This document shows positions 9,828-64,000 of a DNA stretch of 64,000 bases, one piece after another. Source of the stretch: Archangium sp. (GTDB lineage: Bacteria; Myxococcota; Myxococcia; Myxococcales; Myxococcaceae); assembly GCA_047600485.1 (NCBI GenBank), contig JASGKS010000001.1, positions 6,592,259-6,656,258 on the forward strand. The letters are read 5' to 3'. Position 1 is the stretch's first letter. Every line of letters begins with the position of its first letter. The notes below the pieces were generated by a model. That model was not told where the DNA came from. It searched no databases and saw only the letters and a list, made by a program, of their open reading frames with translations. The position numbers and the translations under genes are program-made.

Positions 9828-10023
9828 CCCCTCTCCCTGTGAAACGGGGAGAGGGTCAGGGTGAGGGGCGGAGTCGAGCATCGCGGGCAGAGGACGGATC
9901 AGCCCCTCACCCCAGCCCTCTCCACGCGTCGCAAGGAGAGGGAGAGCGGCAGTCGTGCACGGAGTCAGAGGACGCATCAGCCCCTCACCCCAGCCCTCTC
10001 CCCGCTTCGCAAGGAGAGGGAGG
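9828..10023. repeat. Cluster of three palindromic repeat copies (one forward, two reverse, with ~78-bp tandem duplication)
   Basis: cccctctccctgtgaaacggggagagggtcagggtgagggg, then 2x cccctcaccccagccctctcc...aaggagaggga. It sits inside the operon between the ATPase and the GspF-like genes. Confidence 0.8.
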
Positions 10024-15989: not shown

Positions 15990-16090
15990 GACCGGAGTTG
16001 TCCGCCCGGCCGCACGCCACGACTTTCGCGCGAACTGTCAAAGCAGCAGACAGATCAGCCGCATTTCCACCGCCCATTTCCGAGCGAATT

Positions 16091-17707
16091 TCAGGGCGGT
16101 GCGCCCGACAGAATCCACGCGCGCACGGTGTCGAGCTCCGCGGTGGTGAGGCCGCCGCCGGCCTTCGGCATCTGCGAGCCGAAGCACATGCCGCTGCCGG
16201 TGAGCTTGTTGAGCAGGTAGCTGTTGCTCAAGTCGTTGGGCACCACGCGCTTGCGGTTGGTGCACTGGCCCGAGGTGACGTTCACCAGGTTGGCGTAGCC
16301 CGTCGTCGCCGACGAGAGGTTGAGGCCTTCCGCCGGTCGAGCGCCACCATGACAACCGGAACCCGAGCACGAGTTCCGCACCCAGATGGGGTTCACGTCG
16401 GTCGCGTACGAACGCGGCGTGACGGCGCAGGTGCCCGAGGCGCTGCAGCTCGAGCCGCCGGGGCACGCGCCGCAGCTGCCACCACAACCGTCGCTGCCGC
16501 ACTGCTTGCCGCTGCAGCTCGGACTGCACCCGCACGTTCCTGCCGCGGAGCAACTTTGACCCGACATGCAGGTGCCGCACGAACCTCCGCAGCCGTCGTC
16601 GCCGCACACCTTCCCGACGCACGACGGCGTGCAGCCACACGCGCCCGCCGTGCTGCAGGTCAGCCCGCCCGCGCACGTTCCACACGAGCCTCCGCAACCA
16701 TCGGGCCCGCACGCCTTGCCCGCGCAGTCGGGCACGCACGCGCACGCGCCGGCGCCATTGCAGACCAGCGGCGCAGTGCAGGTTCCGCAGGAACCACCGC
16801 AGCCATCGTCACCACAGGTGCGGCCGGTGCAGCTGGGCGTGCAGGTCGCTCCGCAGCGCCCCGTCTGCGAGTTGCACGTCAGCATTCCCGCGCAGCTGCC
16901 GCACGAGCCGCCGCACCCATCGGGGCCGCACTGCCGCCCGGTGCAGCTGGGCGTGCACACGCACGCGCCGCTCGCATTGCACGTCTGTGGCGCTGCGCAC
17001 GCGCCGCAACTTCCGCCGCACCCGTCGGGCCCGCACGTCTTCCCCGAGCACGCGGGCAAGCACACGCACTGCCCGCTCGCACCACACACCCCGCTGGAAC
17101 AGACGCCGCAGCTTCCCCCGCACCCGTCGGCACCGCAGCTGCGCCCTGAACACTGCGCGGTGCACACGCACTGCCCGGTCGCGTTGCAGCTCGTGGTGCT
17201 GGCGCAGGTGCCGCAGGTGCCTCCGCAGCCGTCGCTGCCGCACGCACGACCCAGACAATCGGGCGTGCACGAGGTCGACGGCTGGCATTGGCCCGCGGCG
17301 GTGCAGTTGTCGCCGGGAGCGCACGCGCCGCAGCTGCCTCCACAGCCGTCGTCACCGCACGCACGGCCACTGCACGCCGCCACGCAGCTCGAGCTCGCGA
17401 GCGTCGTGAGGTGCGCGTCGAGCAGCGACTTCTCGCAGGCCTGCAGGCCGCCCGGAGGCATGGTGCCGTCGTCGAACACGCGCACGCGAATGCGCGACAT
17501 CCAGCGGCGCACGTCGGCGTCGGTGTCAAAGTCGACGCCGTCGGTGGCGCCCGCACGCGCCGCTCCGGTGACTTTGACCGAGTGACAGGTCAAACAGTTG
17601 CGGGTGATGACCTCGCGGCCATCGGCTGAGGGGCACGCGGTGCTCACGACCTGACCGGGACACCCCGAGAGGAGTGCCGCGGCCAGAAGGGCGGTGAGCG
17701 CGCGCAC
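16091..17707 (-). CDS. Lipoprotein with N- and C-terminal PSCyt1-like (CxxCH) modules flanking nine tandem 8-Cys repeats
   Basis: LLSGC lipobox and NCLTCH. Nine repeats of C-x-G-[KR]-x-CG-x-DGCGG[ST]CG-x-C...C..G.C.C.P[SD]. C-terminal SGCHGG...MPKAGGGLTTAELDTVRAWILSGAP. The ORF starts at 17752; an internal start near 17707 is preferred to avoid overlap. Confidence 0.7.
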   Translation of the reverse strand: MRALTALLAAALLSGCPGQVVSTACPSADGREVITRNCLTCHSVKVTGAARAGATDGVDFDTDADVRRWMSRIRVRVFDDGTMPPGGLQACEKSLLDAHLTTLASSSCVAACSGRACGDDGCGGSCGACAPGDNCTAAGQCQPSTSCTPDCLGRACGSDGCGGTCGTCASTTSCNATGQCVCTAQCSGRSCGADGCGGSCGVCSSGVCGASGQCVCLPACSGKTCGPDGCGGSCGACAAPQTCNASGACVCTPSCTGRQCGPDGCGGSCGSCAGMLTCNSQTGRCGATCTPSCTGRTCGDDGCGGSCGTCTAPLVCNGAGACACVPDCAGKACGPDGCGGSCGTCAGGLTCSTAGACGCTPSCVGKVCGDDGCGGSCGTCMSGQSCSAAGTCGCSPSCSGKQCGSDGCGGSCGACPGGSSCSASGTCAVTPRSYATDVNPIWVRNSCSGSGCHGGARPAEGLNLSSATTGYANLVNVTSGQCTNRKRVVPNDLSNSYLLNKLTGSGMCFGSQMPKAGGGLTTAELDTVRAWILSGAPP

Positions 17708-21974: not shown

Positions 21975-22014
21975 CTCCCTCTCCCCCGCAGGGGAGAGGG
22001 TCGGGGAGAGGGCC
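21975..22014. repeat. Palindromic repeat; left arm of a perfect 40-bp inverted-repeat pair
   Basis: ctccctctcccccgcaggggagagggtcggggagagggcc is identical to the reverse complement of 22805-22846. Confidence 0.85.
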
Positions 22015-22055
22015 CATCGAGCCACGGACTTTCGCGCGCGCAGAACACGAGTAGG

Positions 22056-22475
22056 TTGGCTCTCGTGTCGCGGCTCACCTTTCCAACGCTCGTGTTGCTC
22101 TGCGTGGCGGCTTGCCAGAACCAGGCGTGCCCTTCGACCGCCGGCGGCAAGTGTGATCCGCGCAACGCGAATTGTCCGAAGGGTTACGTCTGTGCGCTCG
22201 CTGAGGTCTGCACCCGCACGTGTGAGCAGACGAGTGACTGCTGGGTGAAGGTCGAAGATGGCTGCCGGTACACGTATCTCCCGGGTCAGCGCTTGCCCGA
22301 CGGCGGCGTGTTCAGTGATCAGACGACGGAAGACGGCATCTGCCCCGAAACCAAGTTGATGGAGTGCGTCTCGGGTTACTGCCAGCGCGCTGCGTGCGCG
22401 GAGCAGAGCTGCGACTACGACATCTACGGACCGTCGGAATACAAGGGCAACCGCTCGATGGGGCCTGAGTCATGA
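22056..22475 (+). CDS. Small Cys-rich lipoprotein
   Basis: Signal plus lipobox (LLCVAAC) and 16 Cys. Confidence 0.6.
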   Translation: MALVSRLTFPTLVLLCVAACQNQACPSTAGGKCDPRNANCPKGYVCALAEVCTRTCEQTSDCWVKVEDGCRYTYLPGQRLPDGGVFSDQTTEDGICPETKLMECVSGYCQRAACAEQSCDYDIYGPSEYKGNRSMGPES

Positions 22476-22786
22476 GGGTGCTCTCGGTTCTTCTCTGCGC
22501 CGTCGTCCTCGCCGGCTGCGGAGTGTTCGCCATCCCCGGCACGCCGTGCACCAAGCACGAACAGTGTGGGCTGAAAGATGGCTACTGCTCGCGCGCGGAG
22601 ATCTGCACGCGTGAATGCGGTGACAGCAAGCCGTGCCCTGAGGGGTCGAGCTGCTTCGCTGGCGGAACTCGCTCGGTGTGCCTGCCGAACTGCGACACCG
22701 ACGCGGATTGTCTGCCGAACTTCCGCTGCGCTGATGAGAAGGTGTGCCGCGTGAAGTCGCCGCTCGATCCTCCTCCGATGCAGTGA
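22472..22786 (+). CDS. Small Cys-rich lipoprotein
   Basis: Signal plus lipobox (VVLAGC|G) and 12 Cys. ATGA overlap with the upstream gene. Confidence 0.6.
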   Translation: MRVLSVLLCAVVLAGCGVFAIPGTPCTKHEQCGLKDGYCSRAEICTRECGDSKPCPEGSSCFAGGTRSVCLPNCDTDADCLPNFRCADEKVCRVKSPLDPPPMQ

Positions 22787-22804
22787 CGACGGCTCGGCTC
22801 GACG

Positions 22805-22846
22805 GGCCCTCTCCCCGACCCTCTCCCCTGCGGGGGAGAGGGAGAG
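22805..22846. repeat. Palindromic repeat; right arm of the 40-bp inverted-repeat pair
   Basis: Reverse complement equals 21975-22014 exactly. Confidence 0.85.
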
Positions 22847-43790: not shown

Positions 43791-43884
43791 CCCCTCTCCC
43801 GCGAGGGAGAGGGTTGGGGTGAGGGTGGACCTGAAGTTCAGTCCGGGTCGCGCTTTCTAGATACAGTTTCACCCTCACCCCGAC
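43791..43884. repeat. Composite palindromic element (full left half plus truncated inverted right half)
   Basis: cccctctcccgcgagggagagggttggggtgagggtggacc ...34 bp... gtttcaccctcaccccgac. Same architecture as 60341-60420. Confidence 0.8.
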
Positions 43885-43886
43885 AA

Positions 43887-50389: not shown

Positions 50390-51112
50390 CTAGCCTGCCA
50401 GCTGGCGCACGATCGCTGAATAGGCACGAATCTCCTCAGCAACCAACGAGCGACGATTGCGAAACCGGATCAAGATCTCTTTGATTGCTCGCGTTGCCGC
50501 TGGCGAACGATTCGCGACCTGCGTTGCGACGGCCCGCGCGTGACTCATCAACTGGTCCTCCTTGAGGACTGCATTGACTAAGCCAGCCTGAACGCCCTCC
50601 TCTGCCGTGAACCGACGCCCAGTGAGCAAGATCTCGGCACCGCGAAGAACTCCCATTCGCTCAAGCGCCAAGAACGATCCACCCATCCCAGGAATAATGC
50701 CAAGCGACAACTCCGGCTGCGAAAACCACGCTCCGTGTGCAGCGAAGACGAGATCTGACGCGAGCACCATTTCGCAACCACCGCCAACCGCCGGACCATT
50801 TACGGCGGCAATGAGCGGCACGGGCACTCTCTGAAGCTCACGCGCGAGTTGTTCAAAAGCCCGATGCGCATGAATCCATTCTTTGCTTGTCTGAGACGCC
50901 CGCTCGGATCGGTCGGCTCCAGAACAGAAGGCCCGGCCCTCGGCACTTAGGATCACAGCCCGTGCACTCCGGTCACGGCGCAGGCGGGATAGAAAACTGC
51001 ACACCGTCCGACACATCTGAACCGAGAGCGCGTTGCGAACGGAAGGCCGATTGAGTCTAATTTCTGCAACGCCCTCAGATGGCCAAGTCAGAATCGCGAG
51101 TTCGTTCGTCAT
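50390..51112 (-). CDS. Enoyl-CoA hydratase/isomerase (crotonase)-family protein
   Basis: Crotonase fold motifs (AAVNGPAVGGGCEM; FSQPELSLGIIPGMGG). Reduced GC. Confidence 0.85.
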   Translation of the reverse strand: MTNELAILTWPSEGVAEIRLNRPSVRNALSVQMCRTVCSFLSRLRRDRSARAVILSAEGRAFCSGADRSERASQTSKEWIHAHRAFEQLARELQRVPVPLIAAVNGPAVGGGCEMVLASDLVFAAHGAWFSQPELSLGIIPGMGGSFLALERMGVLRGAEILLTGRRFTAEEGVQAGLVNAVLKEDQLMSHARAVATQVANRSPAATRAIKEILIRFRNRRSLVAEEIRAYSAIVRQLAG

Positions 51113-51960
51113 TATCTTGCCCCAATCGCTAGCACGACAGCTCCAGCCAAAATCATAGTGGCGCCCAACGCGAGCGGTATTGAGGGCCGCTCTTTGAGCA
51201 AGAAGACACCTAAGACGACGTTGAGCAAGATGCTCGATCGCTTCAACGCGACAACGTAGCCTGTAGTTGCCTCAGGACGCTCAAGTGCCAAGACCATAAA
51301 AAGCAAGGATCCCGCTGCCGCAACTCCGACACTCAAAAGTGAAGGTGAAAAGACAGAAGACCGCCGAATTTCAATTCGCGCAAGAAAGATTGACGCAACT
51401 ACTAAACTAGCGACAGCCAAAAATCCCACCAAGCATCGACTTCGTGCGACTTCTTTCAATAGGAGCCCGTCGATGGCCCACATCATCGCGATGCCGATCC
51501 CCGCCCCCATCCATTGTCCACGTGGAATCTCGCGCTTTTCTTGCTGATGACGACCGAGCACAAATGTACCCAAAGCCACAACACCACATCCGATCGTCAG
51601 GGATGAGTCATAGAGCGATGTTCCGCGAAGGAGTTCAATCGTCACGACAAAGACAATGGATGTTCCAAGAAGTGGGGTCACGACAGAGACGCCGGCGTCG
51701 CGAATAGTTTTCGTAAGAAGATGATTCGAGGCTAACTCGAGGACTACATGCGCAACAAGGAGAAGCGGGAGTTCAGCGATATCTCGAAAAGACTCTTTCC
51801 GAGCAATCGCAACAACAAAGTAGACCAGTGAAGCCGTCGCAAACATCACACCATTAATTTGGCGTTGAGGAAAACCCTCGGACGCACGCTTATTCAAGCC
51901 ATTGCGAGCGGCGTCAAATACAGCACTTAGCACTGCCAACAAAACCCAAACAGACATCAC
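51112..51960 (-). CDS. EamA/DMT-superfamily transporter
   Basis: 10 TM helices with duplicated EamA halves. Low GC. Confidence 0.8.
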   Translation of the reverse strand: MMSVWVLLAVLSAVFDAARNGLNKRASEGFPQRQINGVMFATASLVYFVVAIARKESFRDIAELPLLLVAHVVLELASNHLLTKTIRDAGVSVVTPLLGTSIVFVVTIELLRGTSLYDSSLTIGCGVVALGTFVLGRHQQEKREIPRGQWMGAGIGIAMMWAIDGLLLKEVARSRCLVGFLAVASLVVASIFLARIEIRRSSVFSPSLLSVGVAAAGSLLFMVLALERPEATTGYVVALKRSSILLNVVLGVFLLKERPSIPLALGATMILAGAVVLAIGAR

Positions 51961-53045
51961 GCCACCGCGCGATGCAATGCATGAACAAGCGTCGGCCCGT
52001 CCAACTCTCCAAGGTAATCAATAATAATTCGCGTTGAGTCTCGAACGACCGAATGAGCGAGTTGCTTATCGAATGCGCGACCGGGACTACTCAAACGCCA
52101 AAGATATTCAATTCTCGAGGTCAGCGCTCCACCAAAGGTGAGCAGTTGACCCGGCACAATTCTAATCGAACGGCGGATCATCTGTTCGGCAAGCATCTGT
52201 GCCGCCTCCCGGTCAACCGGAAGCGAGTTGTTGTGCGCAAGAAGGAATGTCGCACCAGAGGGAATTCGAACCAAGTCGGAATTCTCGAACTCATTGCCAA
52301 TAGTGGTGGCGATTACCACTCCCCCGCGCTCAAGACACTCCGCCGAGAATTTCCCCGGAACTGACGGCAAAATATCAGGTTGCGCATCAGTAAACGCAAG
52401 ATCGGCGACAGCAAGTTCGACGCTCCGGCTGCGGAGCTCGCGAACGACGTCGGCACCGAGCGCTCCAGCGGCACCAACAACCACGGCTTGGCGAGTGTCT
52501 GGCGCCAATCTGTCTAGCGCGGCAATGACACCAGTCGCTGTGTACGATGACTTACCCCCGCACCCCCCTTTTTCTCGTGCAATGCCCAACACGTGCTCCG
52601 TGTGCCGGTGAAGTATGTCAGCAACACGGGCGAAGCGCCCAAAGTCCGGAGTGAGCTTCAGGATACCGCCCATTGCATTAAGTCTTGAGCCGATTGTTGC
52701 GAAGAGTTCATCGGCGATGGCTGTGAAACTTGGATTCGCCGGGTCTCTGAGAATCAAGTCAAACTCATTCGTCTTCGCACGAATTACGCACCTTCCACCT
52801 CCAACGCGAGAGCTATGCAGACCGGGCACCGAGGCAACTGACAATCGGCCCACTGCGATGTTGATTAGGCGGTTCTTGATTGCGCTCTCAAAAGAGGCGA
52901 GCGAGCGCACCGTCGCATCGGCCTCTTCGTCCGAGCATCTCGCATCAACAAGGCGCGTGCCACCATAGTGGTACACCACATCACTTCGTCCCTCATGAGC
53001 CAGCCATACGGAAGCGATGCGTGTGTCAAACATTTCTACTTCCAT
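51957..53045 (-). CDS. Glu/Leu/Phe/Val-dehydrogenase-family-like protein (atypical GGGR in place of GGGK)
   Basis: YGGTRLV ... EADATVRSLA ... RVGGGRCVI resembles the ELFV-DH N-domain, followed by a VVVGAAGALGADVV Rossmann fold. Confidence 0.55.
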   Translation of the reverse strand: MEVEMFDTRIASVWLAHEGRSDVVYHYGGTRLVDARCSDEEADATVRSLASFESAIKNRLINIAVGRLSVASVPGLHSSRVGGGRCVIRAKTNEFDLILRDPANPSFTAIADELFATIGSRLNAMGGILKLTPDFGRFARVADILHRHTEHVLGIAREKGGCGGKSSYTATGVIAALDRLAPDTRQAVVVGAAGALGADVVRELRSRSVELAVADLAFTDAQPDILPSVPGKFSAECLERGGVVIATTIGNEFENSDLVRIPSGATFLLAHNNSLPVDREAAQMLAEQMIRRSIRIVPGQLLTFGGALTSRIEYLWRLSSPGRAFDKQLAHSVVRDSTRIIIDYLGELDGPTLVHALHRAVA

Positions 53046-53776
53046 TCACTGCCTCCTTCAGAAATCGCGAGAAGCGCAGAGATGATTGCCCGACGAGCCC
53101 CTCGAAACGAGTCGATCGATCGAAGATATGTTCGTGCGCTCTCGTCCGCGGCATCATCGCTGACAATCTTTACACACGCAAAAGGAATGCCGAACCGAGA
53201 ACACGTCTGCGCAACGGCAGACGCCTCCATGTCGAGTGCAATTGCGTCCAATGAGATTCCCGCCCGAATGCTCTCACGGGCCGCAGTTGAAGCGACGAAC
53301 TTGTCGCCAGACAGGAGCAGTCCTCCGTACGAAATCGAGGCGACATTCGACAATGAAGACTTAACAATCTGCGCGAGCTTGATGTTTGCGCTAAACACAA
53401 GATCGCGATGATCGGACATTGCCTGATATTGAAGAGTGCGCTCTCCAGGGCGCGCCAGCCACGTTACGGAAGGAGAGATTCCGCCGAAGTCATGTTGGGC
53501 AAACGTCGTAGGAATCAGAATCGAGCCTACCTGGTGCTTTTCCGTGAGCGCCGCGCAGTATCCGAAATTCAGAACACATCGAAGATCAGAAGCCCCAGCC
53601 GCGAATGCGATGGCTGAGGCCGCTGCAACCTTGCCAACGCCGCTCAGCACAATGCACGACCGGGTCGGAATTGCATCTCGCTCGGGCGCGGTACGAAGAT
53701 CAACAACGCGAATCGATCCGGGCAGGTCCACCCCATCGAGTTCCTCGCGCATGGCCACCTGAATTATGGAGGTCAT
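53036..53776 (-). CDS. PNP_UDP-family nucleosidase (MTA/SAH-nucleosidase-like)
   Basis: ALDMEASAVAQTC...FACVKIVSD matches the MTAN EMEGAA...RxISD core. Confidence 0.7.
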   Translation of the reverse strand: MTSIIQVAMREELDGVDLPGSIRVVDLRTAPERDAIPTRSCIVLSGVGKVAAASAIAFAAGASDLRCVLNFGYCAALTEKHQVGSILIPTTFAQHDFGGISPSVTWLARPGERTLQYQAMSDHRDLVFSANIKLAQIVKSSLSNVASISYGGLLLSGDKFVASTAARESIRAGISLDAIALDMEASAVAQTCSRFGIPFACVKIVSDDAADESARTYLRSIDSFRGARRAIISALLAISEGGSEWK

Positions 53777-55890
53777 TGTTCAAATCTGAGAATCTCGGGC
53801 GGCAGGTCTTGCGCGACGCGCAGGCCGTACCGTTGTGCCGCCTTGATATTGACACCGCGAAGCGGCGAGTCGCATCGCAGAATCGGTATCTCATAAAGAG
53901 CCTTCTTGCCCATTAGCCATGGAACGACAATTTGCTCAGCAGCGCGACGTCCCGAGTCGATGTCGTTGTTCGCGACAAGCGCGACCGCCCCCCGCGTCAT
54001 GTCGGCCTCGTTACCTGCAACAAGCGCCACGGCAAGCGTGCGTGACAGTTGTGCAAAGTTGGCGTTGACGTAGTACCATCCAAACACGACGTCAATCTCG
54101 CGCGGCACAGCTTGAGCGTGTTCAATAGGAGTCACGGCGATGCCGGACTCATGAGAGAACTTGGCGATTCGATCGCGCACGATCACGTCTTGCGCGATTT
54201 GTGCATCATAAAGATACCCGAGTCGTGCATCAGGGAACGTTGTCGACAAGAAACGGAGCGCATTTTCAGGTGTCGCATAGGAGACGCCAGCGATGTTTCC
54301 GCGCCTCTTGTCGCCGTCCATGGACGAGACAAGCCCTGACGCTACAGGGTCGGTCACGCCAGCAAACACGATCGGCAGCTTGTCGCGATGTAATCGCAAT
54401 GCATCGACACTAACTTGAGTACCAATTGTGAAGAGGAGTGCTGGCGGTCTCTCAAACCGCTCGAGCAGTTCTCGGACGGCGCCTTGATTTGCGGCGAAGT
54501 CGCGGTCGCTGCTTCCTGGTGAGCCGATCGTGCGCTCGAAACGAGGTGCCAGTCCAGTGGGCGCCAGCAATTCGCGGAGACGGCTCTTGAACGCATCTTC
54601 GATCGTGCGTGCGTACTCTGCGTCTCCGTTGAGCACAACCGCAACATCGACAATCTTCGCCCCATCGTTCTTTGCGGGCTGGTCGGATCGCGCAGCTGCG
54701 ACCCCCGCGGCAAACACGATCAAGAATGGGACGAGAATCGTTAAAGATGCGGCAATCAGTATGCGAATCAGCCGGAAGCGATGCGGCCATTTCCAGCGCG
54801 CGACAGCTGCTTCACGAAGCGCGTTCACGCGATTTACGGCTTCGGCATACTCCGCGGCCGTCGGTTCTTTGTCTTTGAGAAGGGGCAGGCCGTGCGGTTC
54901 TAAGTGGAGAAAGCGCAAAACGGCAAGTCTGCCGGACTCCGCCATGAGTTCTTTATCCAACTGGCCAATCGAGAAGTCGACCGTTCCTATTGGGGCCGTG
55001 TTGATTCGAACAATGCAATGCCGGTTCGCCTCAATCGCAAGGTTCTCATCCTGCCCTAGAAATATTCTAAATACGTGTTTGAGAACGGTCGTCGCCGATA
55101 GCGTTGCATCTGACGGACGATCGGGCTTCGATGCATCGTGCAAATACAACCCGAGAACATTGGCGTGGGCCCATTCGCGGCGAGCTTGATCGAGTGCGAA
55201 GTTGGCAACAAGCCCACCGTCGAACAGTATGTTTTTTCCGACTACCTGTGGTTCAAAGAAACCCGGGATTGCGACGCTGCACCTTACGGCGTGCTCGACG
55301 TCGTCCTCAGGTGAACCGAAAAGGACGGTGTTCGGCGTGCCCGTGCTTGAGGCGACGACTAACGCCCCGTGTTTCAAGCTCCGGAACTTCGCCCCGAGGT
55401 AGTCATCCGGCTCAATTCGTTCACGGCCATTCGAATGCGGGCGCCAGCGCAATGCATGTTCGATAAAGCGACCAATCGGCTTCGTGCTGAAAGCGAATCC
55501 CCTGAAAAGAGGTACAAGGATTCTAAACCAAATGACTAACTCAAAAAAAAGATAGGCAATGGCGCGGAGCACGAGACGCCATCGAGGCGGTCGCGGTCTT
55601 TCACTCTCTCTCCATGGAGGTTGGGACCACTCCGGTTCCCAGCTTTCAACCAGAAAATCGGAGAATCGTTGCGCGTTAATGATTGCGGCTGTCGTCTTCG
55701 CATCGTAACCCATTGCTAGGACAATCGCCGTCATCGCACCTGCAGAGGTACCGGCAAATTGTTCGAAACGGACATCAACACGATTGGTCAGCTCCAGAAG
55801 TGCCCCAGCAAATGCGGCGCCTTTTACACCGCCACCATTGAACACAAGCCCAAACTTGGCTCCACGCTCGATCGTCGTTTCACGCTCCAC
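53773..55890 (-). CDS. Patatin-like phospholipase fused via TM helix to ABC-type substrate-binding-like (PF04392-like) domain
   Basis: GGGVKG oxyanion, GTSAG serine and DGG aspartate. TM helix LIRILIAASLTILVPFLIVFAAGV. The C-terminal PIVFAGVTDPVASGLVSSMD...GNIAGVS matches the ABC_sub_bind core. Confidence 0.8.
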   Translation of the reverse strand: MERETTIERGAKFGLVFNGGGVKGAAFAGALLELTNRVDVRFEQFAGTSAGAMTAIVLAMGYDAKTTAAIINAQRFSDFLVESWEPEWSQPPWRESERPRPPRWRLVLRAIAYLFFELVIWFRILVPLFRGFAFSTKPIGRFIEHALRWRPHSNGRERIEPDDYLGAKFRSLKHGALVVASSTGTPNTVLFGSPEDDVEHAVRCSVAIPGFFEPQVVGKNILFDGGLVANFALDQARREWAHANVLGLYLHDASKPDRPSDATLSATTVLKHVFRIFLGQDENLAIEANRHCIVRINTAPIGTVDFSIGQLDKELMAESGRLAVLRFLHLEPHGLPLLKDKEPTAAEYAEAVNRVNALREAAVARWKWPHRFRLIRILIAASLTILVPFLIVFAAGVAAARSDQPAKNDGAKIVDVAVVLNGDAEYARTIEDAFKSRLRELLAPTGLAPRFERTIGSPGSSDRDFAANQGAVRELLERFERPPALLFTIGTQVSVDALRLHRDKLPIVFAGVTDPVASGLVSSMDGDKRRGNIAGVSYATPENALRFLSTTFPDARLGYLYDAQIAQDVIVRDRIAKFSHESGIAVTPIEHAQAVPREIDVVFGWYYVNANFAQLSRTLAVALVAGNEADMTRGAVALVANNDIDSGRRAAEQIVVPWLMGKKALYEIPILRCDSPLRGVNIKAAQRYGLRVAQDLPPEILRFEQ

Positions 55891-56081: not shown

Positions 56082-56843
56082 TCACGCGCGTACCCCAAGC
56101 GACGCCGCGTCAAGACCCTTCCAATTTCCGCGCGCCGCGTAGGGCACCAACCGCGTGAACAGCGACTCGGAAAAATGCCCGCCCTGCAGCGCCGCCTGCG
56201 CCGCAGCGTGATGCGCAGAGTCTCTCGCCCACCCCACGAGCTCCGCTTCCGAGCGCCACAGGGTGAAGGTGCACTGACGGAACACCGGCGCTTCGCCCAA
56301 CCCGATCGAGAGCAGGCACGCCTCGCTCCGCGCGATGGCTTCCTGCGCCTTCGGCGCGTGCTCCCAGAACTCCGTCGCCCGCGAAGGCTTGATGGAGCCG
56401 CGCGTCAGCGAAGCGATGACTCCGCCGCTCGGTGCAGGGACGCTCAGCGCAACCGGCTCCACGGAGTCCCACGCGCCACGGCTCGCGTACGCGCGCAGCT
56501 TCATCGTCAGCCAGCTGTTCCCCCGCGCGCGATACAGCGCGAGCTGCTCCGAGCTCTCGAGCCACGCATCGGCCGCCGCGTCGTCGTCGAACACCGCGAA
56601 CAACCCCTGGTGCGAAACGCTCGGCTTCAAACCAAACCCGCCCTCGTGACCCGAGCCGAGCACCTTGCGAAAACGCACTCCGGGCACGCGAGACAAGGGC
56701 CACCGCCCGAACATCAGGTTGCGGATGCCCGCCCACCGCGCGCCGGGCGCGAAGTCGACGATGGCGAGGACTGCGACTGAGCCGGGGGGCTGCACCGGGG
56801 CTCGCGTATCAGAGATGCGGGCTGCCCCCCCAACCAGGACCAC
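56082..56843 (-). CDS. Hypothetical protein
   Basis: 253-aa ORF. High GC returns here; the start is uncertain. Confidence 0.4.
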   Translation of the reverse strand: MVLVGGAARISDTRAPVQPPGSVAVLAIVDFAPGARWAGIRNLMFGRWPLSRVPGVRFRKVLGSGHEGGFGLKPSVSHQGLFAVFDDDAAADAWLESSEQLALYRARGNSWLTMKLRAYASRGAWDSVEPVALSVPAPSGGVIASLTRGSIKPSRATEFWEHAPKAQEAIARSEACLLSIGLGEAPVFRQCTFTLWRSEAELVGWARDSAHHAAAQAALQGGHFSESLFTRLVPYAARGNWKGLDAASLGVRA

Positions 56844-56952: not shown

Positions 56953-57561
56953 TCAATTCGGCAAGACAAGCTGCGAACCGTCTCGCAACCACACGCGCGT
57001 GCCCGCGGAGCTGCGCTCCACGCGCTCGGGAACTTCGAGCCATTGCTTCACTGCGCCCTCAGGCACGTCACGCCGCCACGCCGCATCGAGCTGCGCGGTG
57101 GTGTCGAACGTCAAATTCGCCAGCCGCCGTTCCACTTCGCCAGACTCGCCCATGCCCAGCACCATCGGGTCGAGCAGCAACCCCACCAGCGCCTCGTGGA
57201 GCGCTGCCCGCTCGCCCGCCGTCAGCTCCGACGCCGCCAACGCCACCCGCGCGCGCAACCGCTGGTCGAGCACCGGCCGCGGGCCCGCGAACTGCGTCAG
57301 CGCCGCCTCTCCGACAATCCAATCATCGACCCAACCGTGCGCCGTTCCATCGGTCACCGCGTCGTCTTCGGAGTCGAGGTAGCGCAACGCGCGCGCCAGA
57401 CCCAGTCGTGACGCGGGCGCGCGGTCGGGCTCGTCGAGCTGCGTCTTCAAGCGCAGCCGCAGCGCGCTCACTTCCGGCGGAGGCCTCTCGCTCGAACACG
57501 CGGAAGCAAACGCCATCGCGAACCCCACCACCACACCCCACCCCATCGCGCGCCGAGCCAT
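56953..57561 (-). CDS. Lipoprotein, function unknown
   Basis: Lipobox (FASAC|S). The ORF extension upstream of Met101 was rejected. Confidence 0.55.
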   Translation of the reverse strand: MARRAMGWGVVVGFAMAFASACSSERPPPEVSALRLRLKTQLDEPDRAPASRLGLARALRYLDSEDDAVTDGTAHGWVDDWIVGEAALTQFAGPRPVLDQRLRARVALAASELTAGERAALHEALVGLLLDPMVLGMGESGEVERRLANLTFDTTAQLDAAWRRDVPEGAVKQWLEVPERVERSSAGTRVWLRDGSQLVLPN

Positions 57562-57691
57562 GCGGCAACTCTCAGCAACGCGCGTGCCTCGTGACGTGCT
57601 CGGGCGAACTGTCCAATCGAGTGGACAGCACACACGCACCAGTCGCTCTCTGACGTGTGGCGCTTTCGTTGCACTTGAAATTCTCGTGGCG

Positions 57692-59233
57692 ATGCGCGCG
57701 CTCATCACCGTCGATCGGCTGGTACCTTCGCCGGTCGTGACCCATACAGATCGACTGAGGCTCGAGCGCACGTTGCTCGCTTCGCTCCTGAAGTTGACCC
57801 GGGAAGACGCAGACGAGAAGCAGGTGCGCAGCTGCCTGCAGCTCCTCGGCAGCGTCACCAAAGCGCGCCGCGTCTACCTCGAGGTCTACCAACTCGACGA
57901 AGACGAGAAGCCGCGGTGGCAGGTGAGTGAAGGCTTCTCCGATGACGAAGCCGACGCCGTGCACCAGCTCACCTCGCGCGGAATCGTCGCTGCGGCGCTG
58001 GCGTCGGGCGAAACGGTGCACACGCCCTTCGCGCTGCTCGACGACCGCTTCAAGGACCGCCCCAGCGTGCAGAGCCGTCGCCTCGAGGCCGTGCTCTGCG
58101 TGCCGGTCGGTGAGAACGGCGGCGTGCTGTATCTGGAAGGCGCTCCCGACGGAGGCCCGTTCCAACCCGAAGACGTCGAGCTGGTGATGGAAGTCGGAGC
58201 CGCGCTCGGCCCACTCCTCGAGCGTTTGTCGGAGCGCGCCGCGGCCCAGACGCCCGACTCCGACCCCACGCGCGCCTGGCGCGAACGGCTGCTCCTCACC
58301 GGAATGGTCGGCCGCTCGCCGCGCCTCGTCGAGGTCTTCAGCCAGGTCGAGCTCGCCGCTCCCAATCAGGTGCCGGTGCTCATCAGCGGAGAGACCGGCA
58401 CCGGCAAGACCCAGCTCGCGCGCGTCATTCACGACAACGGCCCGCGCCGCGCGTTTCCCTTCGTCGAGCTCAACTGCGCCAACTTCAACGAGGGGCTCAT
58501 CGAGGCCGAGCTGTTCGGCACCGTGCCCGGCGCGTTCACCGGAGCGACCAAGCGCCGCGGTCAGGTCGAGGCCGCGCACGGCGGCACGCTGTTCCTCGAC
58601 GAAATCGCTGAGCTGCCGCTGAGCGCGCAGGCGCGGTTGCTCCAGCTGCTGCAGAGCCAGCGCTTCTTCCCTGTCGGCAGCACGCAAGAGCAATCGGCCA
58701 ACGTGCGCTTCATGGCGGCGACCCACCAGCCGCTCGACAAGCTGATGGCCGAGGGCAAGTTCCGCGAAGACCTCTTCTTCCGCTTGAACGTGGTCACCAT
58801 TCGCATGCCCTCGCTGCGAGAGCGCAGCGGCGACGTGCCTGACCTGGTGGTGGAGCTGCTTCGCGTCATCTCAGCCGAGGTCGGCTGCGCGCCGCTGCCG
58901 CCGTCACACGGGCTGCTGCGCTCGTGCCGCACGCTCGACCTGCCGGGCAACGTGCGCGGGCTCAAGTCGGTGCTCACCGTCGCGTTGCTGCGCGCGAATC
59001 AAGAAGGCGCGGCGCAGGTCGAGACCCACCACCTCACTCCGGGCAGCACCGACGGCCCGGCGCAGACCTTCCACGGGCTGACGCGCGCGTTTCAAAGAGA
59101 CCTGCTGCAGCGCGAGCTCGATTCCACCGGGTGGAACGTTTCCGAAGTGGCGCGGCGCATCGATTTGAGCCGGGCCCATCTCTACAACCTGATTCGTGAA
59201 CTTCAGCTGAGGAGCCCCACCAAGGAGAAGTGA
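57692..59233 (+). CDS. Sigma-54-dependent enhancer-binding protein (GAF-like N-domain + AAA+ + Fis HTH)
   Basis: GETGTGKT Walker A, GAFTGA sigma54-contact motif, ESELFG-like motif, and a C-terminal HTH (VSEVARRIDLSRAHLYNLIRE). Confidence 0.85.
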   Translation: MRALITVDRLVPSPVVTHTDRLRLERTLLASLLKLTREDADEKQVRSCLQLLGSVTKARRVYLEVYQLDEDEKPRWQVSEGFSDDEADAVHQLTSRGIVAAALASGETVHTPFALLDDRFKDRPSVQSRRLEAVLCVPVGENGGVLYLEGAPDGGPFQPEDVELVMEVGAALGPLLERLSERAAAQTPDSDPTRAWRERLLLTGMVGRSPRLVEVFSQVELAAPNQVPVLISGETGTGKTQLARVIHDNGPRRAFPFVELNCANFNEGLIEAELFGTVPGAFTGATKRRGQVEAAHGGTLFLDEIAELPLSAQARLLQLLQSQRFFPVGSTQEQSANVRFMAATHQPLDKLMAEGKFREDLFFRLNVVTIRMPSLRERSGDVPDLVVELLRVISAEVGCAPLPPSHGLLRSCRTLDLPGNVRGLKSVLTVALLRANQEGAAQVETHHLTPGSTDGPAQTFHGLTRAFQRDLLQRELDSTGWNVSEVARRIDLSRAHLYNLIRELQLRSPTKEK

Positions 59234-59779
59234 ATGGCCGCGACGTACGAACCTGCGAGTCTTTACAAAGATGCCATCGTCCACCGTCAGACGTCGCTGC
59301 CTTCCACGCGACAGTACTGGGCGTGGGACGTGATGAGTCGAATCGACCTCGAGTACTACTGGGTCGAAGCGACGACGTCGGACTTCCAGAGTTCCACGGA
59401 CGAATCGGGAGACATCACCCTCATCAAGCTCACCGGCAACGTGGGCGCGACCGTGTTCGTCACGCGCAACGACTCCAACCTGTGGGCGCCGCAGCCGTCC
59501 ACGCTCTTCTACCCGGGCTCCGGCAGCTCGGAGAATCGCGGCATCTTGCTCGTCACCGCCGCGTTCTTCCCGGACCACGGGCTGGAGCGCGCGAACTATG
59601 CAGATGGTGGCGGCAGCAAGTACCCGCGCCAGCTCGGCGAGCTCTTCGTCGCCGCGATGCGGGTGATGCGCACGCTGCGTGACACCACACCGCGGGCCGT
59701 CGACGAGGCCACCAGCCAACTCGACGTCGAGAGCCGCGAGCTCTTGAAGGGGTTCCTCGCCGGCGGCAAGGAGCGCTGA
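59234..59779 (+). CDS. Hypothetical protein
   Basis: Starts 1 nt after the EBP stop (TGAATG), so likely co-transcribed. Confidence 0.5.
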   Translation: MAATYEPASLYKDAIVHRQTSLPSTRQYWAWDVMSRIDLEYYWVEATTSDFQSSTDESGDITLIKLTGNVGATVFVTRNDSNLWAPQPSTLFYPGSGSSENRGILLVTAAFFPDHGLERANYADGGGSKYPRQLGELFVAAMRVMRTLRDTTPRAVDEATSQLDVESRELLKGFLAGGKER

Positions 59780-59782
59780 GCG

Positions 59783-60340
59783 ATGGACGCCAAGATCACC
59801 CTATTGTCCGCGCAGGACGAGCAGCACCTGCAGGAAATCGCGTCGCGCTTTCATCAGCAGACCGAGGCGACCCCTTCGTATGCGACCGCGCTCATCACCT
59901 CGGCGATGGAAGCGCCGAACCCGCTCGCCGGAGTCTTGAAGTTCTCGGTGCGTCGGAGTGCCGGCCGTTTGTTGCGAGCTGATTTCGTCGGGCACGCGCT
60001 GCTCGAGCGGCCGACGCGAAAGAACGCTCCGATGAGCTACGGCATGAGCACCACCAACGCGCGGACCATCACGCTCGGCGTGTCGCGCGGGAAGTTCGTG
60101 GGGCTCGAGCTGCTCGACGCGCTGTCGCACGCGTACCCGGTGCCCGATTTGGTGGTGCGCTTTCTGCTCTGCGATGGGGCGAATTTTCCGCGCGAGTTCT
60201 TGAGCGCGTGTGTCGAGCGGCTGCGCAAGTTCAGCCCGCTCGCGGTGCTGCAGCTGAGCAAGGGCGGCGTACACGCGGGACATTTCGGTCCCGGTGGTTT
60301 TCAGGACAAGCACGCAGATCGCCTCGTCCCGTTTCCCTGA
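59783..60340 (+). CDS. Hypothetical protein
   Basis: Third gene of the putative EBP operon. Followed by a repeat element. Confidence 0.5.
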   Translation: MDAKITLLSAQDEQHLQEIASRFHQQTEATPSYATALITSAMEAPNPLAGVLKFSVRRSAGRLLRADFVGHALLERPTRKNAPMSYGMSTTNARTITLGVSRGKFVGLELLDALSHAYPVPDLVVRFLLCDGANFPREFLSACVERLRKFSPLAVLQLSKGGVHAGHFGPGGFQDKHADRLVPFP

Positions 60341-60420
60341 GAGGGTTGGGGTGAGGGTGGACCGCTTCTTTGACTGCGTTTCACCCTCACCCCGACCCTC
60401 TCCCTCGCGGGAGAGGGGGA
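60341..60420. repeat. Composite palindromic element (truncated left half plus full inverted right half)
   Basis: gagggttggggtgagggtggacc ...21 bp... gtttcaccctcaccccgaccctctccctcgcgggagaggg. Confidence 0.8.
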
Positions 60421-60442: not shown

Positions 60443-63400
60443 GTGTTCGCAGGGTTCCGCATCGAACGACTCCTCGCTGAGGGCGCTTCGGCGCGCGTCT
60501 ACCTCGCACGCGACCCCACGCTGGACCGCGACGTCGCGCTGAAGGTCTTCAAGCCCGTCTCTGACAGCACGCAATTCCTCCGCGAGGCGCAGCTCACTGC
60601 GCGGCTCGACCATCAACACATCGTCCGCGTGCTCCACTGCGGCACCGAAGACGGTTCGCCGTTCCTGGTGCTCGAGTACGTCCCCGGGCCCACGCTCGCC
60701 GAGGTGATTGCCAAAGGCAGCCTCGACCCACAGCTCCCTGCGCGCGCCGCGACGGAAATCGCCGAAGGCCTCCGCTATCTCCACGCGCAAGGCGTGGTGC
60801 ACGGCGACCTGAAAGCCGAGAACGTGCTGATGCCCACCAGCGGCCGACTGCGGCTGGTCGACTTCGGGCTCTCGGCCGCCATCGGCCAACGCGCTGACGG
60901 TCGCGGCACCGAGGACACGCTCTCTCCACAATGCTGGCTCGCTCGACACCAGCTCACGCCGGCCGACGACATCTGGGCGCTCGGAGTGCTCCTCACGCAG
61001 CTCGTCACCGGCAAACCGCCCTTCGCCGCGGGAGAAGTGAGCCGCGCCGCGTTCTCGAACGTGGCCCTCGAGCCGCCGCGCGTCGGTGGCCCGCTGGAGC
61101 CGCTCATCGCCCGCTGTCTGTCGTGGGAACCCGCGCAACGGCCCTCGGCCGACGACGTGCTCGCAGCGCTGCGTCAGCTCGAGCTCGAAGCGCACCCGCC
61201 GTTTCGCGGGCTGGCTCCATTCTCCGAGCGCGACCGCGATGACTTTCAAGGCCGCGACGCCGAGACCCAGCGCGGCCTCGAGCTGCTCTCGCACCGCGAG
61301 CCGCTCGCCATCGCCGGCCCGTCAGGCGTGGGAAAGAGCTCGTTCGCGCACGCCCGGCTCGTGCCGCGCCTGCGCGAGAGCAGTGCGGGCGAGCTCACCG
61401 TGCTCTCGTTCCGGCCCGGAGCGCAGCCACTGCGAACGCTCGCGCTCGCGCTCGGTGACGCAGCGCTCGAAGCCCAGCTGGCGGCCGAGCCCACCAAACT
61501 CGGCCCGCTGCTGCGTGGCGCGCAACGTTCTCGCAAAGGCCCGCTCCTGGTGCTGGTGGACCAGTTCGAAGAAGTCTTCACCCTCGCCACCAGCGCCGAC
61601 GCCGACGCGTTCTGCAGAGCGCTCGCCGCGGCCGGCAGCGAATTCGTGAAATTGCTCGTGTTGGTGCGCGACGAATTCCTCGGTCGGCTCTTTCAATCTC
61701 CGCTCGCGAGCACCGACCTGCGCGTGCTCAGCCTGCGCCCGCTCGACGCCGGCGAGCTCGAGCGCGCCATCAGCGAGCCGCTGCGCCGCTGCCGAGCCCA
61801 GCTCGACCCGCCCTCGCTCGCGCGCCGCATCGCCGACGACGTCGCGCGGCAACCGGCTCCGCTGCCGCTGCTGCAGTTTTCCTGTCACGCGTTGTGGGAA
61901 CGGCGCGGCGCGGGCAACACGCTCAGTGGCTCCGAGTACGACCGGCTCGGTACGGCGGCCGGCATTCTCGCCGCGCACGCGCAAGATTTCTCGAGCGCCC
62001 TCGACGTCGAGTCGCGCACGCACGTGCGGCGCCTGCTGCTCACCGCGGTGAACGCCGACGGCACGCGACGACCGGTGCCGCGCGCGACGCTGCCCGACCA
62101 GAGTCTGGTCGATCGTCTCATCGAGCGCCGGTTGTTGGTGGCGCGCGACGACGCGGGTGTTCCCATCGTCGAGCTCGCGCACGAGTCGCTCGCCACGCTG
62201 TGGCCCGAGCTGCAGCGCTGGCTGCGCGAATCGACCGACGCGCACCGGCTGCAGAGCGACCTCGAGACCGCGGGTGAACGGTGGGAACGCCTCGGTCGAC
62301 GCGATGCCGACACGTGGCGCGAGAGCGTGCAGCTGACGCGCGAGCGGTTGGGCGACCTGCCGTTGTCTCCGCGCGCCGAGCGTTTCGTCGCCGCCAGTGA
62401 GCTGCTCGGTCAGAGCGCTGCCCGTCGCCGGCGCACGTTCTTCGCCGCCGCGCTCCTCGCTGCCTTCCTCATCAGCGGTGGCGCGGTGGCGCTCGCCCTT
62501 CGCTTCCGCGACAACGAGCGTCGCGCGCTCGAGCAGCAGGCCGAGCTGCTCGAAATCGCCGAGAACCTCGGAGCGGTGAAGCTCGAGTTCGCTCCACTCG
62601 ACTGGGACGGAGAGAAGTTCACGCCCGCGAGTCTCGACGGCCTCGCGCGCTCGTGGCGTCTGTGGCCCGCGGATCCTTCCGACCCGCACCGCCCACGCCT
62701 CGAGCGCCCGCTCGCCATTCGAGATTTGACGTTGAGCGGCACCGGTGTGGTGACCGCGTCGTTCCTCGCTCCGGGTGGGCCCGCGTTCCTCGAGGTGTAC
62801 GAGCGCGGTGGCGAGTGCCCCAGTTCGTGGATTCGCTTGAACGCACTTCCCGGTCTCGTCGAGCGGCGCAGTGGTCAGGTGTTGCAGGCGCGCATTCAGG
62901 TGCCGACGTGCCGCGCTTCCGCGGCCGATGAAGTCGCGCTGCGGCCCGGGCTGTGGCTCGACCGTCACGAAGAGCGCAACGCGTTGTACGCGCCCTTCGA
63001 GGCGATGCAGTCGGTGCATCACTACGACCACGTGCAGCCGCCGGCGAACGCCGATCTGAGCAGCGCGCTGTTGCCCGAGTACCCCGTCACCGGAGTCGAC
63101 TGGTTCACCGCCGCCGCCTTCTGCCGCTGGCAGGGCAAGCGTCTGCCGTTGATGGACGAGTGGCGCGCGGCCGACGTGGAAAGCAGCGGCACGCCGAACC
63201 TCGATGGAACCGGCGACGGCTTCGGCGCGCTCGCTCCCGTCGACGCGGCGCTCGACGTGACGCCGCTCGGCATCCGCTCACTGCGCGGCAACGTGCGCGA
63301 GTGGACGGCGTCGCTGCGCGCTGACGGCACGCAACGCATGGCGCTCATCGGCGGCGGCGACTGGGTGATGAGCCACGAACTCGAAGCGAAGTTTCGCAGC

Positions 63401-63481
63401 GACGAGAACTTCAACGCGCGCCAGGGCATCGACTTCGCGCTCGGTGTGCGGTGCGCGCGACGATCCAGCACTGAGTGGTGA
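60443..63481 (+). CDS. Multidomain signalling protein: Ser/Thr kinase + STAND/P-loop NTPase + TM + FGE-sulfatase (SUMF1-like) domain
   Basis: Kinase VHGDLKAENVL and DFG. P-loop GPSGVGKSS with hhhhDQFEE (Walker B). TM helix (FFAAALLAAFLISGGAVALAL). The FGE-sulfatase motif appears in variant form (GNVREWT), with DWFTAAAFCRW. Confidence 0.85.
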   Translation: MFAGFRIERLLAEGASARVYLARDPTLDRDVALKVFKPVSDSTQFLREAQLTARLDHQHIVRVLHCGTEDGSPFLVLEYVPGPTLAEVIAKGSLDPQLPARAATEIAEGLRYLHAQGVVHGDLKAENVLMPTSGRLRLVDFGLSAAIGQRADGRGTEDTLSPQCWLARHQLTPADDIWALGVLLTQLVTGKPPFAAGEVSRAAFSNVALEPPRVGGPLEPLIARCLSWEPAQRPSADDVLAALRQLELEAHPPFRGLAPFSERDRDDFQGRDAETQRGLELLSHREPLAIAGPSGVGKSSFAHARLVPRLRESSAGELTVLSFRPGAQPLRTLALALGDAALEAQLAAEPTKLGPLLRGAQRSRKGPLLVLVDQFEEVFTLATSADADAFCRALAAAGSEFVKLLVLVRDEFLGRLFQSPLASTDLRVLSLRPLDAGELERAISEPLRRCRAQLDPPSLARRIADDVARQPAPLPLLQFSCHALWERRGAGNTLSGSEYDRLGTAAGILAAHAQDFSSALDVESRTHVRRLLLTAVNADGTRRPVPRATLPDQSLVDRLIERRLLVARDDAGVPIVELAHESLATLWPELQRWLRESTDAHRLQSDLETAGERWERLGRRDADTWRESVQLTRERLGDLPLSPRAERFVAASELLGQSAARRRRTFFAAALLAAFLISGGAVALALRFRDNERRALEQQAELLEIAENLGAVKLEFAPLDWDGEKFTPASLDGLARSWRLWPADPSDPHRPRLERPLAIRDLTLSGTGVVTASFLAPGGPAFLEVYERGGECPSSWIRLNALPGLVERRSGQVLQARIQVPTCRASAADEVALRPGLWLDRHEERNALYAPFEAMQSVHHYDHVQPPANADLSSALLPEYPVTGVDWFTAAAFCRWQGKRLPLMDEWRAADVESSGTPNLDGTGDGFGALAPVDAALDVTPLGIRSLRGNVREWTASLRADGTQRMALIGGGDWVMSHELEAKFRSDENFNARQGIDFALGVRCARRSSTEW

Positions 63482-63512: not shown

Positions 63513-64000
63513 ATGAACACGACCGACGTCACGGCGGTAGCGCGCGAAGCGATGGCGATGCGACGAGCGATGGCGATTGCGCAGCAGCAGGCGGCGCCCC
63601 TCGACCGCGGCTTGAAGGTGGTCGTCTTCCTCGTGGTGTGGGGCCTCTTCTCGGGGCTCGGGCTGCTCATCGGCGGAGGCGTCGGCGGCGCTCCGGGTGC
63701 TCCCGTGGGCCTGGGCCTCGGCATGTTCCTCGGCTTCTTCGCCGCGCTGTGGGCGAGCGCCGTCATCCGCATCGCTGCGCAGTGGGAACGCTCGGTGGTG
63801 TTGCGCTTCGGAAAGTTCCATTCGACGAAGGGGCCCGGAATGCTCTTCGTGTTCCCCGTCGCCGACAGCGTGCAGATGGTCGACACGCGCCTGTTGACGA
63901 TGAGCATCCCCAAGCAGCAGGTCATCACGCGCGACAACGTGCCGGTGTCCATCGACGGCGCGCTCTTCTTCCAGGTGCGCGACCCGGAGCGCGCGGTCAC
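63513..64000 (+). CDS. SPFH/band-7 (stomatin/prohibitin-like) domain protein, 5' part (runs off window end)
   Basis: TM helix, then QWERSVVLRFGKF...PKQQVITRDNVPVSIDGALFFQVRDPE, typical of the SPFH core. Confidence 0.75.
   Translation, partial: MNTTDVTAVAREAMAMRRAMAIAQQQAAPLDRGLKVVVFLVVWGLFSGLGLLIGGGVGGAPGAPVGLGLGMFLGFFAALWASAVIRIAAQWERSVVLRFGKFHSTKGPGMLFVFPVADSVQMVDTRLLTMSIPKQQVITRDNVPVSIDGALFFQVRDPERAV

Follow-up and report, generated by a model that had tools for sequence, protein, structure and literature searches.

A single-pass membrane kinase-nSTAND1-FGE-fold protein encoded beside a sigma-54 activator in Archangium sp.

We analysed a 64-kb stretch of DNA from Archangium sp. (64,000 nucleotides of contig JASGKS010000001.1, hereafter the window), near the 3' end of which lies a plus-strand gene encoding a protein of 1012 aa. 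The protein carries a Hanks-type Ser/Thr kinase domain, an nSTAND1 NTPase module, one transmembrane (TM) helix and a C-terminal domain with the fold of the formylglycine-generating enzyme (FGE). Its gene is preceded, in this order, by a gene for a sigma-54 enhancer-binding protein (EBP) with a GAF domain and by two genes for orphan proteins, p181 and p185; p185 begins 3 nt after p181 and the kinase gene 102 nt after p185, and the four genes form one cluster (Table 1). On balance we favour the reading that the protein is a single-pass TM receptor Ser/Thr kinase which signals to a sigma-54 activator.

The open reading frame (ORF) of the kinase gene starts with the GTG at 60443, the earliest candidate start 3' of an in-frame stop, and its GC content at third codon positions is 0.84, as in other coding frames here (window GC ~68%). 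The exact protein is present at NCBI as MFT3711958.1, from an Archangium sp. metagenome-assembled genome (9.42-Mb contig), and a paralogue with 57% identity, MFT3712898.1, is encoded on the same contig. An initial annotation of the DNA had described the product as a four-part fusion of 1012 aa, and this was borne out by the ORF call, Pfam and a hydrophobicity scan. All three of its profile-based domains scored above the Pfam cutoffs: Pkinase (PF00069; E=1.1e-42, 146.7 bits against a cutoff of 31.7), nSTAND1 (PF20703; positions 1-378 of the 379 in the profile, E=1.7e-83, 281.8 bits against 27.1) and FGE-sulfatase (PF03781; E=5.9e-15, 56.1 bits against 23.3). When the same protein was searched against NCBIfam, no model reached its curated cutoff.

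Table 1. Features of the kinase-nSTAND1-TM-FGE locus (positions in the window)
Feature	Position	Strand	Basis
Putative lipoprotein gene, 202 aa, divergent, signal peptide ending ...AFASAC	56953..57561	-	L081 ortholog, 61% identity
Sigma-54-type motif AGGCACGCGCGTTGCT, facing the lipoprotein gene	57574..57589	-	conserved in L081
Palindrome TGTCCA-N6-TGGACA between the divergent promoters	57610..57627		conserved in L081
Sigma-54-type motif TGGCGCTTTCGTTGCA, facing EBP-p181-p185-kinase	57658..57673	+	conserved in L081
GAF-sigma-54 EBP (GAF, Sigma54_activat, HTH_8), 513 aa from ATG 57692	57692..59233	+	profiles, L081 comparison
p181, orphan protein, start abuts EBP stop codon	59234..59779	+	conserved in 3 window-clade loci
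p185, orphan cytoplasmic protein between EBP and kinase	59783..60340	+	conserved in 3 window-clade loci
Hairpin like a repetitive extragenic palindromic (REP) element, 27-nt arms plus small second hairpin, fills the 102-bp spacer	60339..60420		dispersed repeat family
Gene of kinase-nSTAND1-TM-FGE-fold protein, 1012 aa, MFT3711958.1	60443..63481	+	ORF call, Pfam, NCBI match
Hanks-type Ser/Thr kinase domain, residues 6-241	60458..61165	+	Pfam, alignment
nSTAND1 NTPase module, residues 253-621, Walker A GPSGVGKSS, Walker B LLVLVDQFEE, R409	61199..62305	+	Pfam, alignment
Single TM helix F666-L686, RRRR directly before	62438..62500	+	hydrophobicity scan
Extracytoplasmic beta-sandwich, residues ~709-821	62567..62905	+	alignment, AlphaFold2 model
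Reduced FGE-fold (C-type-lectin-like) domain, residues 829-1006	62927..63460	+	Pfam, AlphaFold2, Foldseek, alignment
SPFH/Band_7 gene, 5' part, runs off the window	63513..64000	+	start approximate

The conservation of functional residues was read from an alignment of 25 proteins of the same architecture, in which the window protein and its nearest relatives form one clade (the window clade) and the proteins of a second, main clade are ~35% identical to the window protein. The catalytic set of the kinase was found to be complete, comprising the VAxK lysine K34, the alpha-C glutamate E48, the HxD aspartate D122, N127 and the DFG aspartate D140; together with H120, F141 and G142 these residues are invariant in 25/25 members. 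Across the family the kinase is of the non-RD type, with HGD or HCD in the catalytic loop. The motifs quoted in the initial annotation are thus present, and its view of the P-loop module as a STAND NTPase stood as well: Walker A (G292-x-S294-G295-x-G297-K298-S299-S300), Walker B (D373-Q374-x-x-E377) and R409, the probable sensor arginine, are invariant in the 25 relatives, and the P-loop is not degenerate. Since all three elements are invariant, the nSTAND1 NTPase looks intact by its motifs.

A 19-residue hydrophobicity scan placed a lone TM helix between the NTPase module and the C-terminal domain, and an equivalent helix with an Arg-rich N-terminal flank was observed in 25/25 family members. 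The 1012-aa protein has neither an N-terminal signal peptide nor an N-terminal TM helix. Because there is one TM helix and no N-terminal signal, and because the kinase and the NTPase require cytosolic ATP, the predicted topology must be N-in/C-out, with residues 1-665 in the cytoplasm and the C-terminal 326 residues outside the cytoplasmic membrane. This agrees with the single TM helix and extracytoplasmic FGE-like domain proposed in the initial annotation. Four cysteines are invariant in the ectodomain, C792 and C823 (with the beta-sandwich) and C894 and C1004 (FGE-fold domain), and an oxidising compartment would be consistent with them. The ectodomain was modelled with AlphaFold2 from a 19-sequence alignment (pLDDT 79.9, pTM 0.85), and the model consists of a stalk helix with a beta-sandwich spanning ectodomain residues 23-135 and an alpha/beta domain spanning 140-326. 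In a Foldseek comparison of this model with the PDB, the top 27 matches were FGE or pFGE chains, from E=5e-7, and further matches were to CalU17, the C-terminal domain of EgtB and Mtd, a protein of a diversity-generating retroelement (DGR).

The conserved partner of the kinase gene, overlooked in the initial annotation, is a sigma-54 transcription activator. The closest ortholog locus (L081; 66% identity) has the same gene order as the window, with 22 bp of spacer ahead of the kinase gene and a Band_7 gene downstream; a third window-clade locus (L111; 58% identity) retains the 3' end of the EBP gene, p181, p185 and the kinase gene, followed by another gene. The SPFH gene, which had been suggested as a conserved neighbour, is found only in the window and L081 and is absent from L111 and the main clade, and we rejected it as a conserved partner. 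In the main-clade loci L082/83, L084, L085 and L086, a gene for an EBP with an FHA domain lies ~1-3.5 kb from the kinase gene. The same was observed in 9/10 metagenome loci that have at least 3 kb of sequence downstream, the tenth having 3.1 kb. This gives FHA-EBPs in 13 distinct main-clade loci and GAF-EBPs in the 3 window-clade loci. In main-clade EBPs, including those of the metagenome loci, the FHA domain stands directly N-terminal of the AAA+ core. The 64-kb window holds a single EBP gene, and in control loci (two encoding kinase-nSTAND1-WD40 proteins, one a kinase-nSTAND1-only protein) an EBP gene was present within 10 kb in 0/3. The linkage would thus be specific to the TM-FGE family, and since the adjacency survives both the exchange of FHA for GAF and several gene orders, it argues for a functional link.

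The main-clade partner has the FHA-AAA+-HTH organisation of the FHA sigma-54 EBPs of Myxococcus xanthus, whereas the window EBP has GAF in place of FHA; the likeness is one of architecture only. Jelsbak, Givskov and Kaiser are said to have proposed in 2005 that FHA EBPs are under Ser/Thr kinase control. To our knowledge, the upstream kinases of the myxobacterial FHA-domain sigma-54 activators are largely unassigned, and we know of no published pairing of an FHA-EBP with a STAND-containing receptor kinase.

The promoter regions were also compared. In the 130-bp region between the lipoprotein and EBP genes, two sigma-54-type motifs and the palindrome between them are kept in L081, and the bases in between have diverged. 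Both TGGCGCTTTCGTTGCA and AGGCACGCGCGTTGCT have the GG-N10-GC spacing (-24 GG/-12 GC) and are motif matches only. In the main clade, the short stretches on either side of the kinase gene hold 10 motifs of like quality against 1.3 expected, and all of these point outward to neighbouring genes. The palindrome TGTCCA-N6-TGGACA could be a binding site for the EBP. Translation of the EBP most likely begins at the ATG at 57692 (513 aa) and not at 57560, as in the longest ORF, because TGGCGCTTTCGTTGCA precedes the former and protein conservation with L081 begins there. A loose sigma-54 pattern run over the whole window showed no enrichment (58 matches against 70 expected); what is informative is only the positional clustering of the motifs and their conservation across loci.

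These arrangements could also be explained if the EBP and the kinase were only co-regulated, or if the EBP acted upstream, for example in development or envelope stress, and the targets of the kinase lay elsewhere. The window clade itself lends this some weight, as its kinase gene stands downstream of the EBP gene in a cluster behind a sigma-54-type promoter, a layout that speaks directly for control of the kinase by the EBP, and as its EBP carries GAF and not FHA. The FHA domain is a reader of phosphothreonine, the output of Ser/Thr kinases, and its presence on the EBP in the 13 main-clade loci is not what co-regulation would lead one to expect; the sigma-54-like motifs of the main clade, moreover, face the flanking genes and not the kinase gene. 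Because the main-clade activators carry FHA, we favour kinase-to-EBP signalling over mere co-regulation, which we consider unlikely.

The architecture is more widespread than the initial annotation, which had called the addition of a STAND NTPase uncommon, would suggest. Among the best 120 hits, at least 33 clusters (90% identity) combine Pkinase, nSTAND1 and FGE-sulfatase, those with a label being from Myxococcota, and kinase-nSTAND1-WD40 proteins, with WD40 instead of TM and FGE, are even more frequent among the same hits. A metagenome scan based on a 6-sequence main-clade alignment found the kinase-nSTAND1-FGE architecture at 21 loci, NCBI annotates it generically, and it has been described in silico by Kaur et al. 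(eLife 2021, PMC8195603). Kaur et al. named nSTAND1 and described STAND-FGS proteins with N-terminal S/T/Y-kinase modules, occurring in bacteria of multicellular habit including myxobacteria, often associated with DGRs and predicted to be intracellular sensors of invaders. The kinase-nSTAND1-FGE fusion is therefore not categorically new.

The window family resembles the STAND-FGS proteins of Kaur et al. in its N-terminal effector-type module, its central nSTAND1 and its C-terminal FGS lectin-like domain. It differs in that those proteins were described as intracellular sensors of invaders, often linked to DGRs and paired with effector-associated domain (EAD) or effector genes, whereas here an invariant TM helix separates STAND from FGS, a DGR repeat is absent and the partner is a sigma-54 EBP; we found no mention of a sigma-54 EBP link in the Kaur papers. 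Dore et al. (PNAS 2024, PMC10907252) described DGR-diversified nSTAND1/NACHT-CLec proteins in which they saw putative sensors of antigens, the C-type lectin (CLec) domain being periplasmic in some. These share the STAND NTPase and the C-terminal CLec/FGE fold, and some are likewise predicted to be periplasmic via a TM helix, but their genes have a variable repeat and, close by, the matching template repeat and a reverse transcriptase; no such repeat was found here or in the related loci, and no DGR-type reverse transcriptase in L081-L086. The Myxococcota kinase-nSTAND1-WD40 proteins (1500-1770 aa) match the kinase and nSTAND1 modules at 33-38% identity over ~60-70% of the query; they have a cytoplasmic WD40 propeller, no TM helix and, in two loci, no sigma-54 EBP gene within 10 kb. 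Hanks kinases with a C-terminal FGE-sulfatase domain share the N-terminal kinase, the TM helix and FGE-sulfatase as the presumed sensor, but lack the 370-residue STAND NTPase between kinase and membrane; a preprint atlas of bacterial Ser/Thr kinases lists such STAND-less kinase-TM-FGE-sulfatase proteins as a recurrent architecture (Proteo1 family). With a TM helix in all 25 members, no DGR repeat in 20 loci and an EBP gene adjacent in every informative locus, the window family goes beyond the description of Kaur et al. and is a distinct variant, which spans the membrane, is DGR-free and has a sigma-54 EBP coupled to it.

The absence of a DGR rests on several searches. When the final 580 nt of the gene were compared with the entire window by sensitive blastn, nothing rose above chance, and no near-repeat of the gene's last 330 nt was found in the window, which ends 519 nt past the stop codon, or in 19 related loci. 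No reverse transcriptase gene adjoins the kinase gene in the gene tables of L081-L086, in which the only RVT gene is a group II intron reverse transcriptase fragment ~8 kb from the kinase gene in L084. The gene was therefore rejected as a DGR target, with no template-like repeat in the 20 loci and no DGR reverse transcriptase in the neighbour loci.

The initial annotation leaned towards an antiphage or programmed-cell-death role. In such an NLR-like counter-invader system, as envisaged by Kaur et al., FGS would sense the invader, nSTAND1 would oligomerise and the kinase, as effector, would shut down or kill the cell. The architecture does fit their class of effector/EAD-STAND (nSTAND1)-FGS proteins, for which an S/T/Y kinase is listed as N-terminal module (PMC8195603), and the DGR-diversified nSTAND1/NACHT-CLec proteins, some with periplasmic CLec, have been proposed as antigen sensors (PMC10907252); in the present family, however, the sensor is predicted to lie outside the cytoplasm in 25/25 members, out of reach of intracellular phage components, and there is no DGR repeat in the 20 loci. 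In PADLOC the kinase domain resembles the defence kinases mad6, PD-T4-6 and MkoA, at the level of the domain, but the STAND and FGE parts matched no defence-system model, those of the antiphage STAND systems Avs and bNACHT included. L081 and L085 do carry a caspase or caspase-TIR gene within a few genes of the kinase gene, and a low-GC island with patatin and PNP genes lies 4.5 kb upstream in the window; the caspase neighbours are sporadic, however, and the loci share no conserved effector or EAD partner, though EAD profiles were not searched. The sole conserved partner is a transcription activator. The leaning towards defence thus found no specific support, and we regard this explanation as improbable.

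The suggestion that the protein is a bifunctional enzyme, a kinase joined to an active FGE which matures sulfatases, draws on the NCBI product name ("bifunctional kinase/FGE") and the Pfam score of the FGE-sulfatase domain, and can be dismissed as very improbable: none of the 19 aligned ectodomains has a Cys in the segment that corresponds to the copper-binding catalytic pair of human FGE (C336/C341), and the best PDB sequence match of the family profile is the non-catalytic paralogue pFGE/SUMF2 (E=3e-30). Two segments of the FGE-fold domain present in the main clade are also deleted in the window clade. Since the catalytic pair is absent and these segments are missing, the C-terminal domain is, as judged from sequence and model, a binding module of FGE fold, similar to C-type lectins, rather than an enzyme, and the NCBI name is misleading.

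The spacer before the kinase gene is filled by a repeat element. Its 27-nt inverted repeat arms at 60339-60402 fold to -62.2 kcal/mol (z=-5.5), and the window has 14 copies of the repeat core GGGTTGGGGTGAGGGT, where 0.36 would be expected. Alignment of the copies gave a shared core of ~24 nt, GGGAGAGGGTYGGGGTGAGGG, with copies at 1218, 9853-9996, 10869, 12981, 21998-22821, 43811-43886, 46182, 47054 and 60343-60398 of the window, often arranged in inverted pairs so that long hairpins result. The composite repeat that the initial annotation had placed in the promoter region is therefore real, but its promoter role did not hold, as the element is dispersed and is missing from L081 with its 22-bp spacer, and as the repeat region shows neither a sigma-70-like site nor a T-run, nor any excess of terminators; on the same grounds we discarded both a promoter and a terminator function. 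It is best read as a dispersed REP-like element inserted in a spacer within the cluster, outside the conserved system.

Some further observations concern the genes that accompany the kinase. Neither p181 nor p185 has Pfam or PADLOC matches. Among 5.8 billion clusters, only 3 close relatives apiece were found for the two proteins, and a set of 1.84 billion yielded 9 representatives for p181. p181 is deposited as a protein of 148 aa (MFT3711956.1); in its 181-aa form it begins right at the stop codon of the EBP, and similarity to L081 reaches as far as residue 4. The deposited or automatic start is thus a probable annotation issue for p181 (59234-59335), as it is for the EBP (57560-57692). In the main clade, three unannotated families, found in L082 at 13417-14370, 15816-16613 and 9407-9802, have counterparts in L084, L085 and L086: one of ~300-317 aa overlaps the kinase stop codon, one of ~240-265 aa adjoins the FHA-EBP gene, and one of ~131-140 aa is divergent from the kinase gene and lies behind a sigma-54-like motif. 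L110 encodes, at 11972-12922, a 913-aa kinase-nSTAND1 protein without TM and FGE, with a stand-alone FHA protein two genes off and no EBP, which may point to a wider association of FHA readers with nSTAND1 kinases. A few genes from the kinase gene, classic conflict-system genes occur in two loci, for an nSTAND1-WD40 protein beside a caspase-TIR protein in L085 (1177-6114) and for a 696-aa Peptidase_C14 protein in L081 (10024-12114); both occurrences are sporadic and not conserved with the kinase.

Upstream of the cluster, the minus strand of the window carries at 50390-55890 a low-GC island (0.53-0.59 against ~0.68 around it) with a five-gene operon. It encodes a patatin-like phospholipase of 704 aa, fused to an ABC_sub_bind-like domain, together with a PNP_UDP_1 phosphorylase, a protein of 361 aa, an EamA transporter and an enoyl-CoA hydratase. 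Weak PADLOC "Effector" matches were obtained for the patatin and PNP portions, and the island may have been horizontally acquired, as a defence-like or lipid-metabolism operon. An rRNA operon was rejected as the explanation of the low-GC stretch at 50.4-56 kb, which is this five-gene minus-strand operon; Rfam gave no match anywhere in the window. Between the island and the lipoprotein gene lies a 253-aa ORF (56082-56843, minus strand) with a weak match to ABM (antibiotic biosynthesis monooxygenase; E=4e-4, below cutoff).

If the protein is a receptor kinase that signals to the EBP, the pathway might run as follows. A periplasmic ligand would be bound by the lectin-like ectodomain, and the signal would pass across the membrane and release the STAND module to an NTP-bound, oligomerising state. 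Clustering would then switch on the kinase domains, and the neighbouring sigma-54 EBP would read the phosphorylation signal and activate the sigma-54 promoters in the locus. For the GAF-EBP of the window clade, the link might be made via p181 and p185, or by direct phosphorylation. It is possible, and we propose it tentatively, that this Myxococcota family is a bacterial hybrid between receptor-like kinase and NLR, in which an extracytoplasmic lectin-fold pattern sensor acts on a STAND switch, the switch on a non-RD kinase and the kinase on a dedicated FHA or GAF EBP, with inducible transcription and not death as the output.

Several points weigh against this account. In the window clade the Gly-rich loop of the kinase is degenerate (AEGASA) and SPQ replaces APE, whereas the main clade has the canonical GEGGMG loop and APE; the activity of the window kinase may accordingly be weak, though activity would still be possible. 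With GAF in place of FHA in the window clade, the phosphothreonine-reading argument applies there by analogy only, and gene adjacency fits signalling from kinase to EBP as well as it fits an EBP that merely controls expression of the kinase. The controls for EBP adjacency comprise three loci only, and p181 and p185 are orphans, the AlphaFold2 model of p185 having a pLDDT of 38.7. The palindrome is only ~30-40 bp from each promoter, nearer than typical upstream activating sequences of EBPs. The enrichment of sigma-54-like motifs around the main-clade kinase genes is suggestive only, since the flanking regions counted were picked post hoc and the loci are related by descent. By comparative genomics, nSTAND1 proteins in general are tied to conflict systems (PMC8195603), and a literature search found no experimental study of any family member.

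STAND/NLR proteins are usually viewed as sensors in the cytoplasm whose output is cell death or the release of effectors. Here the STAND switch is built into what is predicted to be a single-pass membrane receptor, with the sensor outside, a kinase as output and an EBP gene beside it in every informative locus. Were signalling to the EBP not the case, the protein would be one further member of an already catalogued architecture. If it is, this would be the first STAND-gated Ser/Thr kinase-to-EBP pathway, and it would provide testable cognate kinase-activator pairs for the myxobacterial FHA-EBPs. Proteins that combine STAND and FGS should then not be filed automatically as antiphage, and the logic of NLRs would extend, in bacteria, to extracytoplasmic sensing and transcriptional output.

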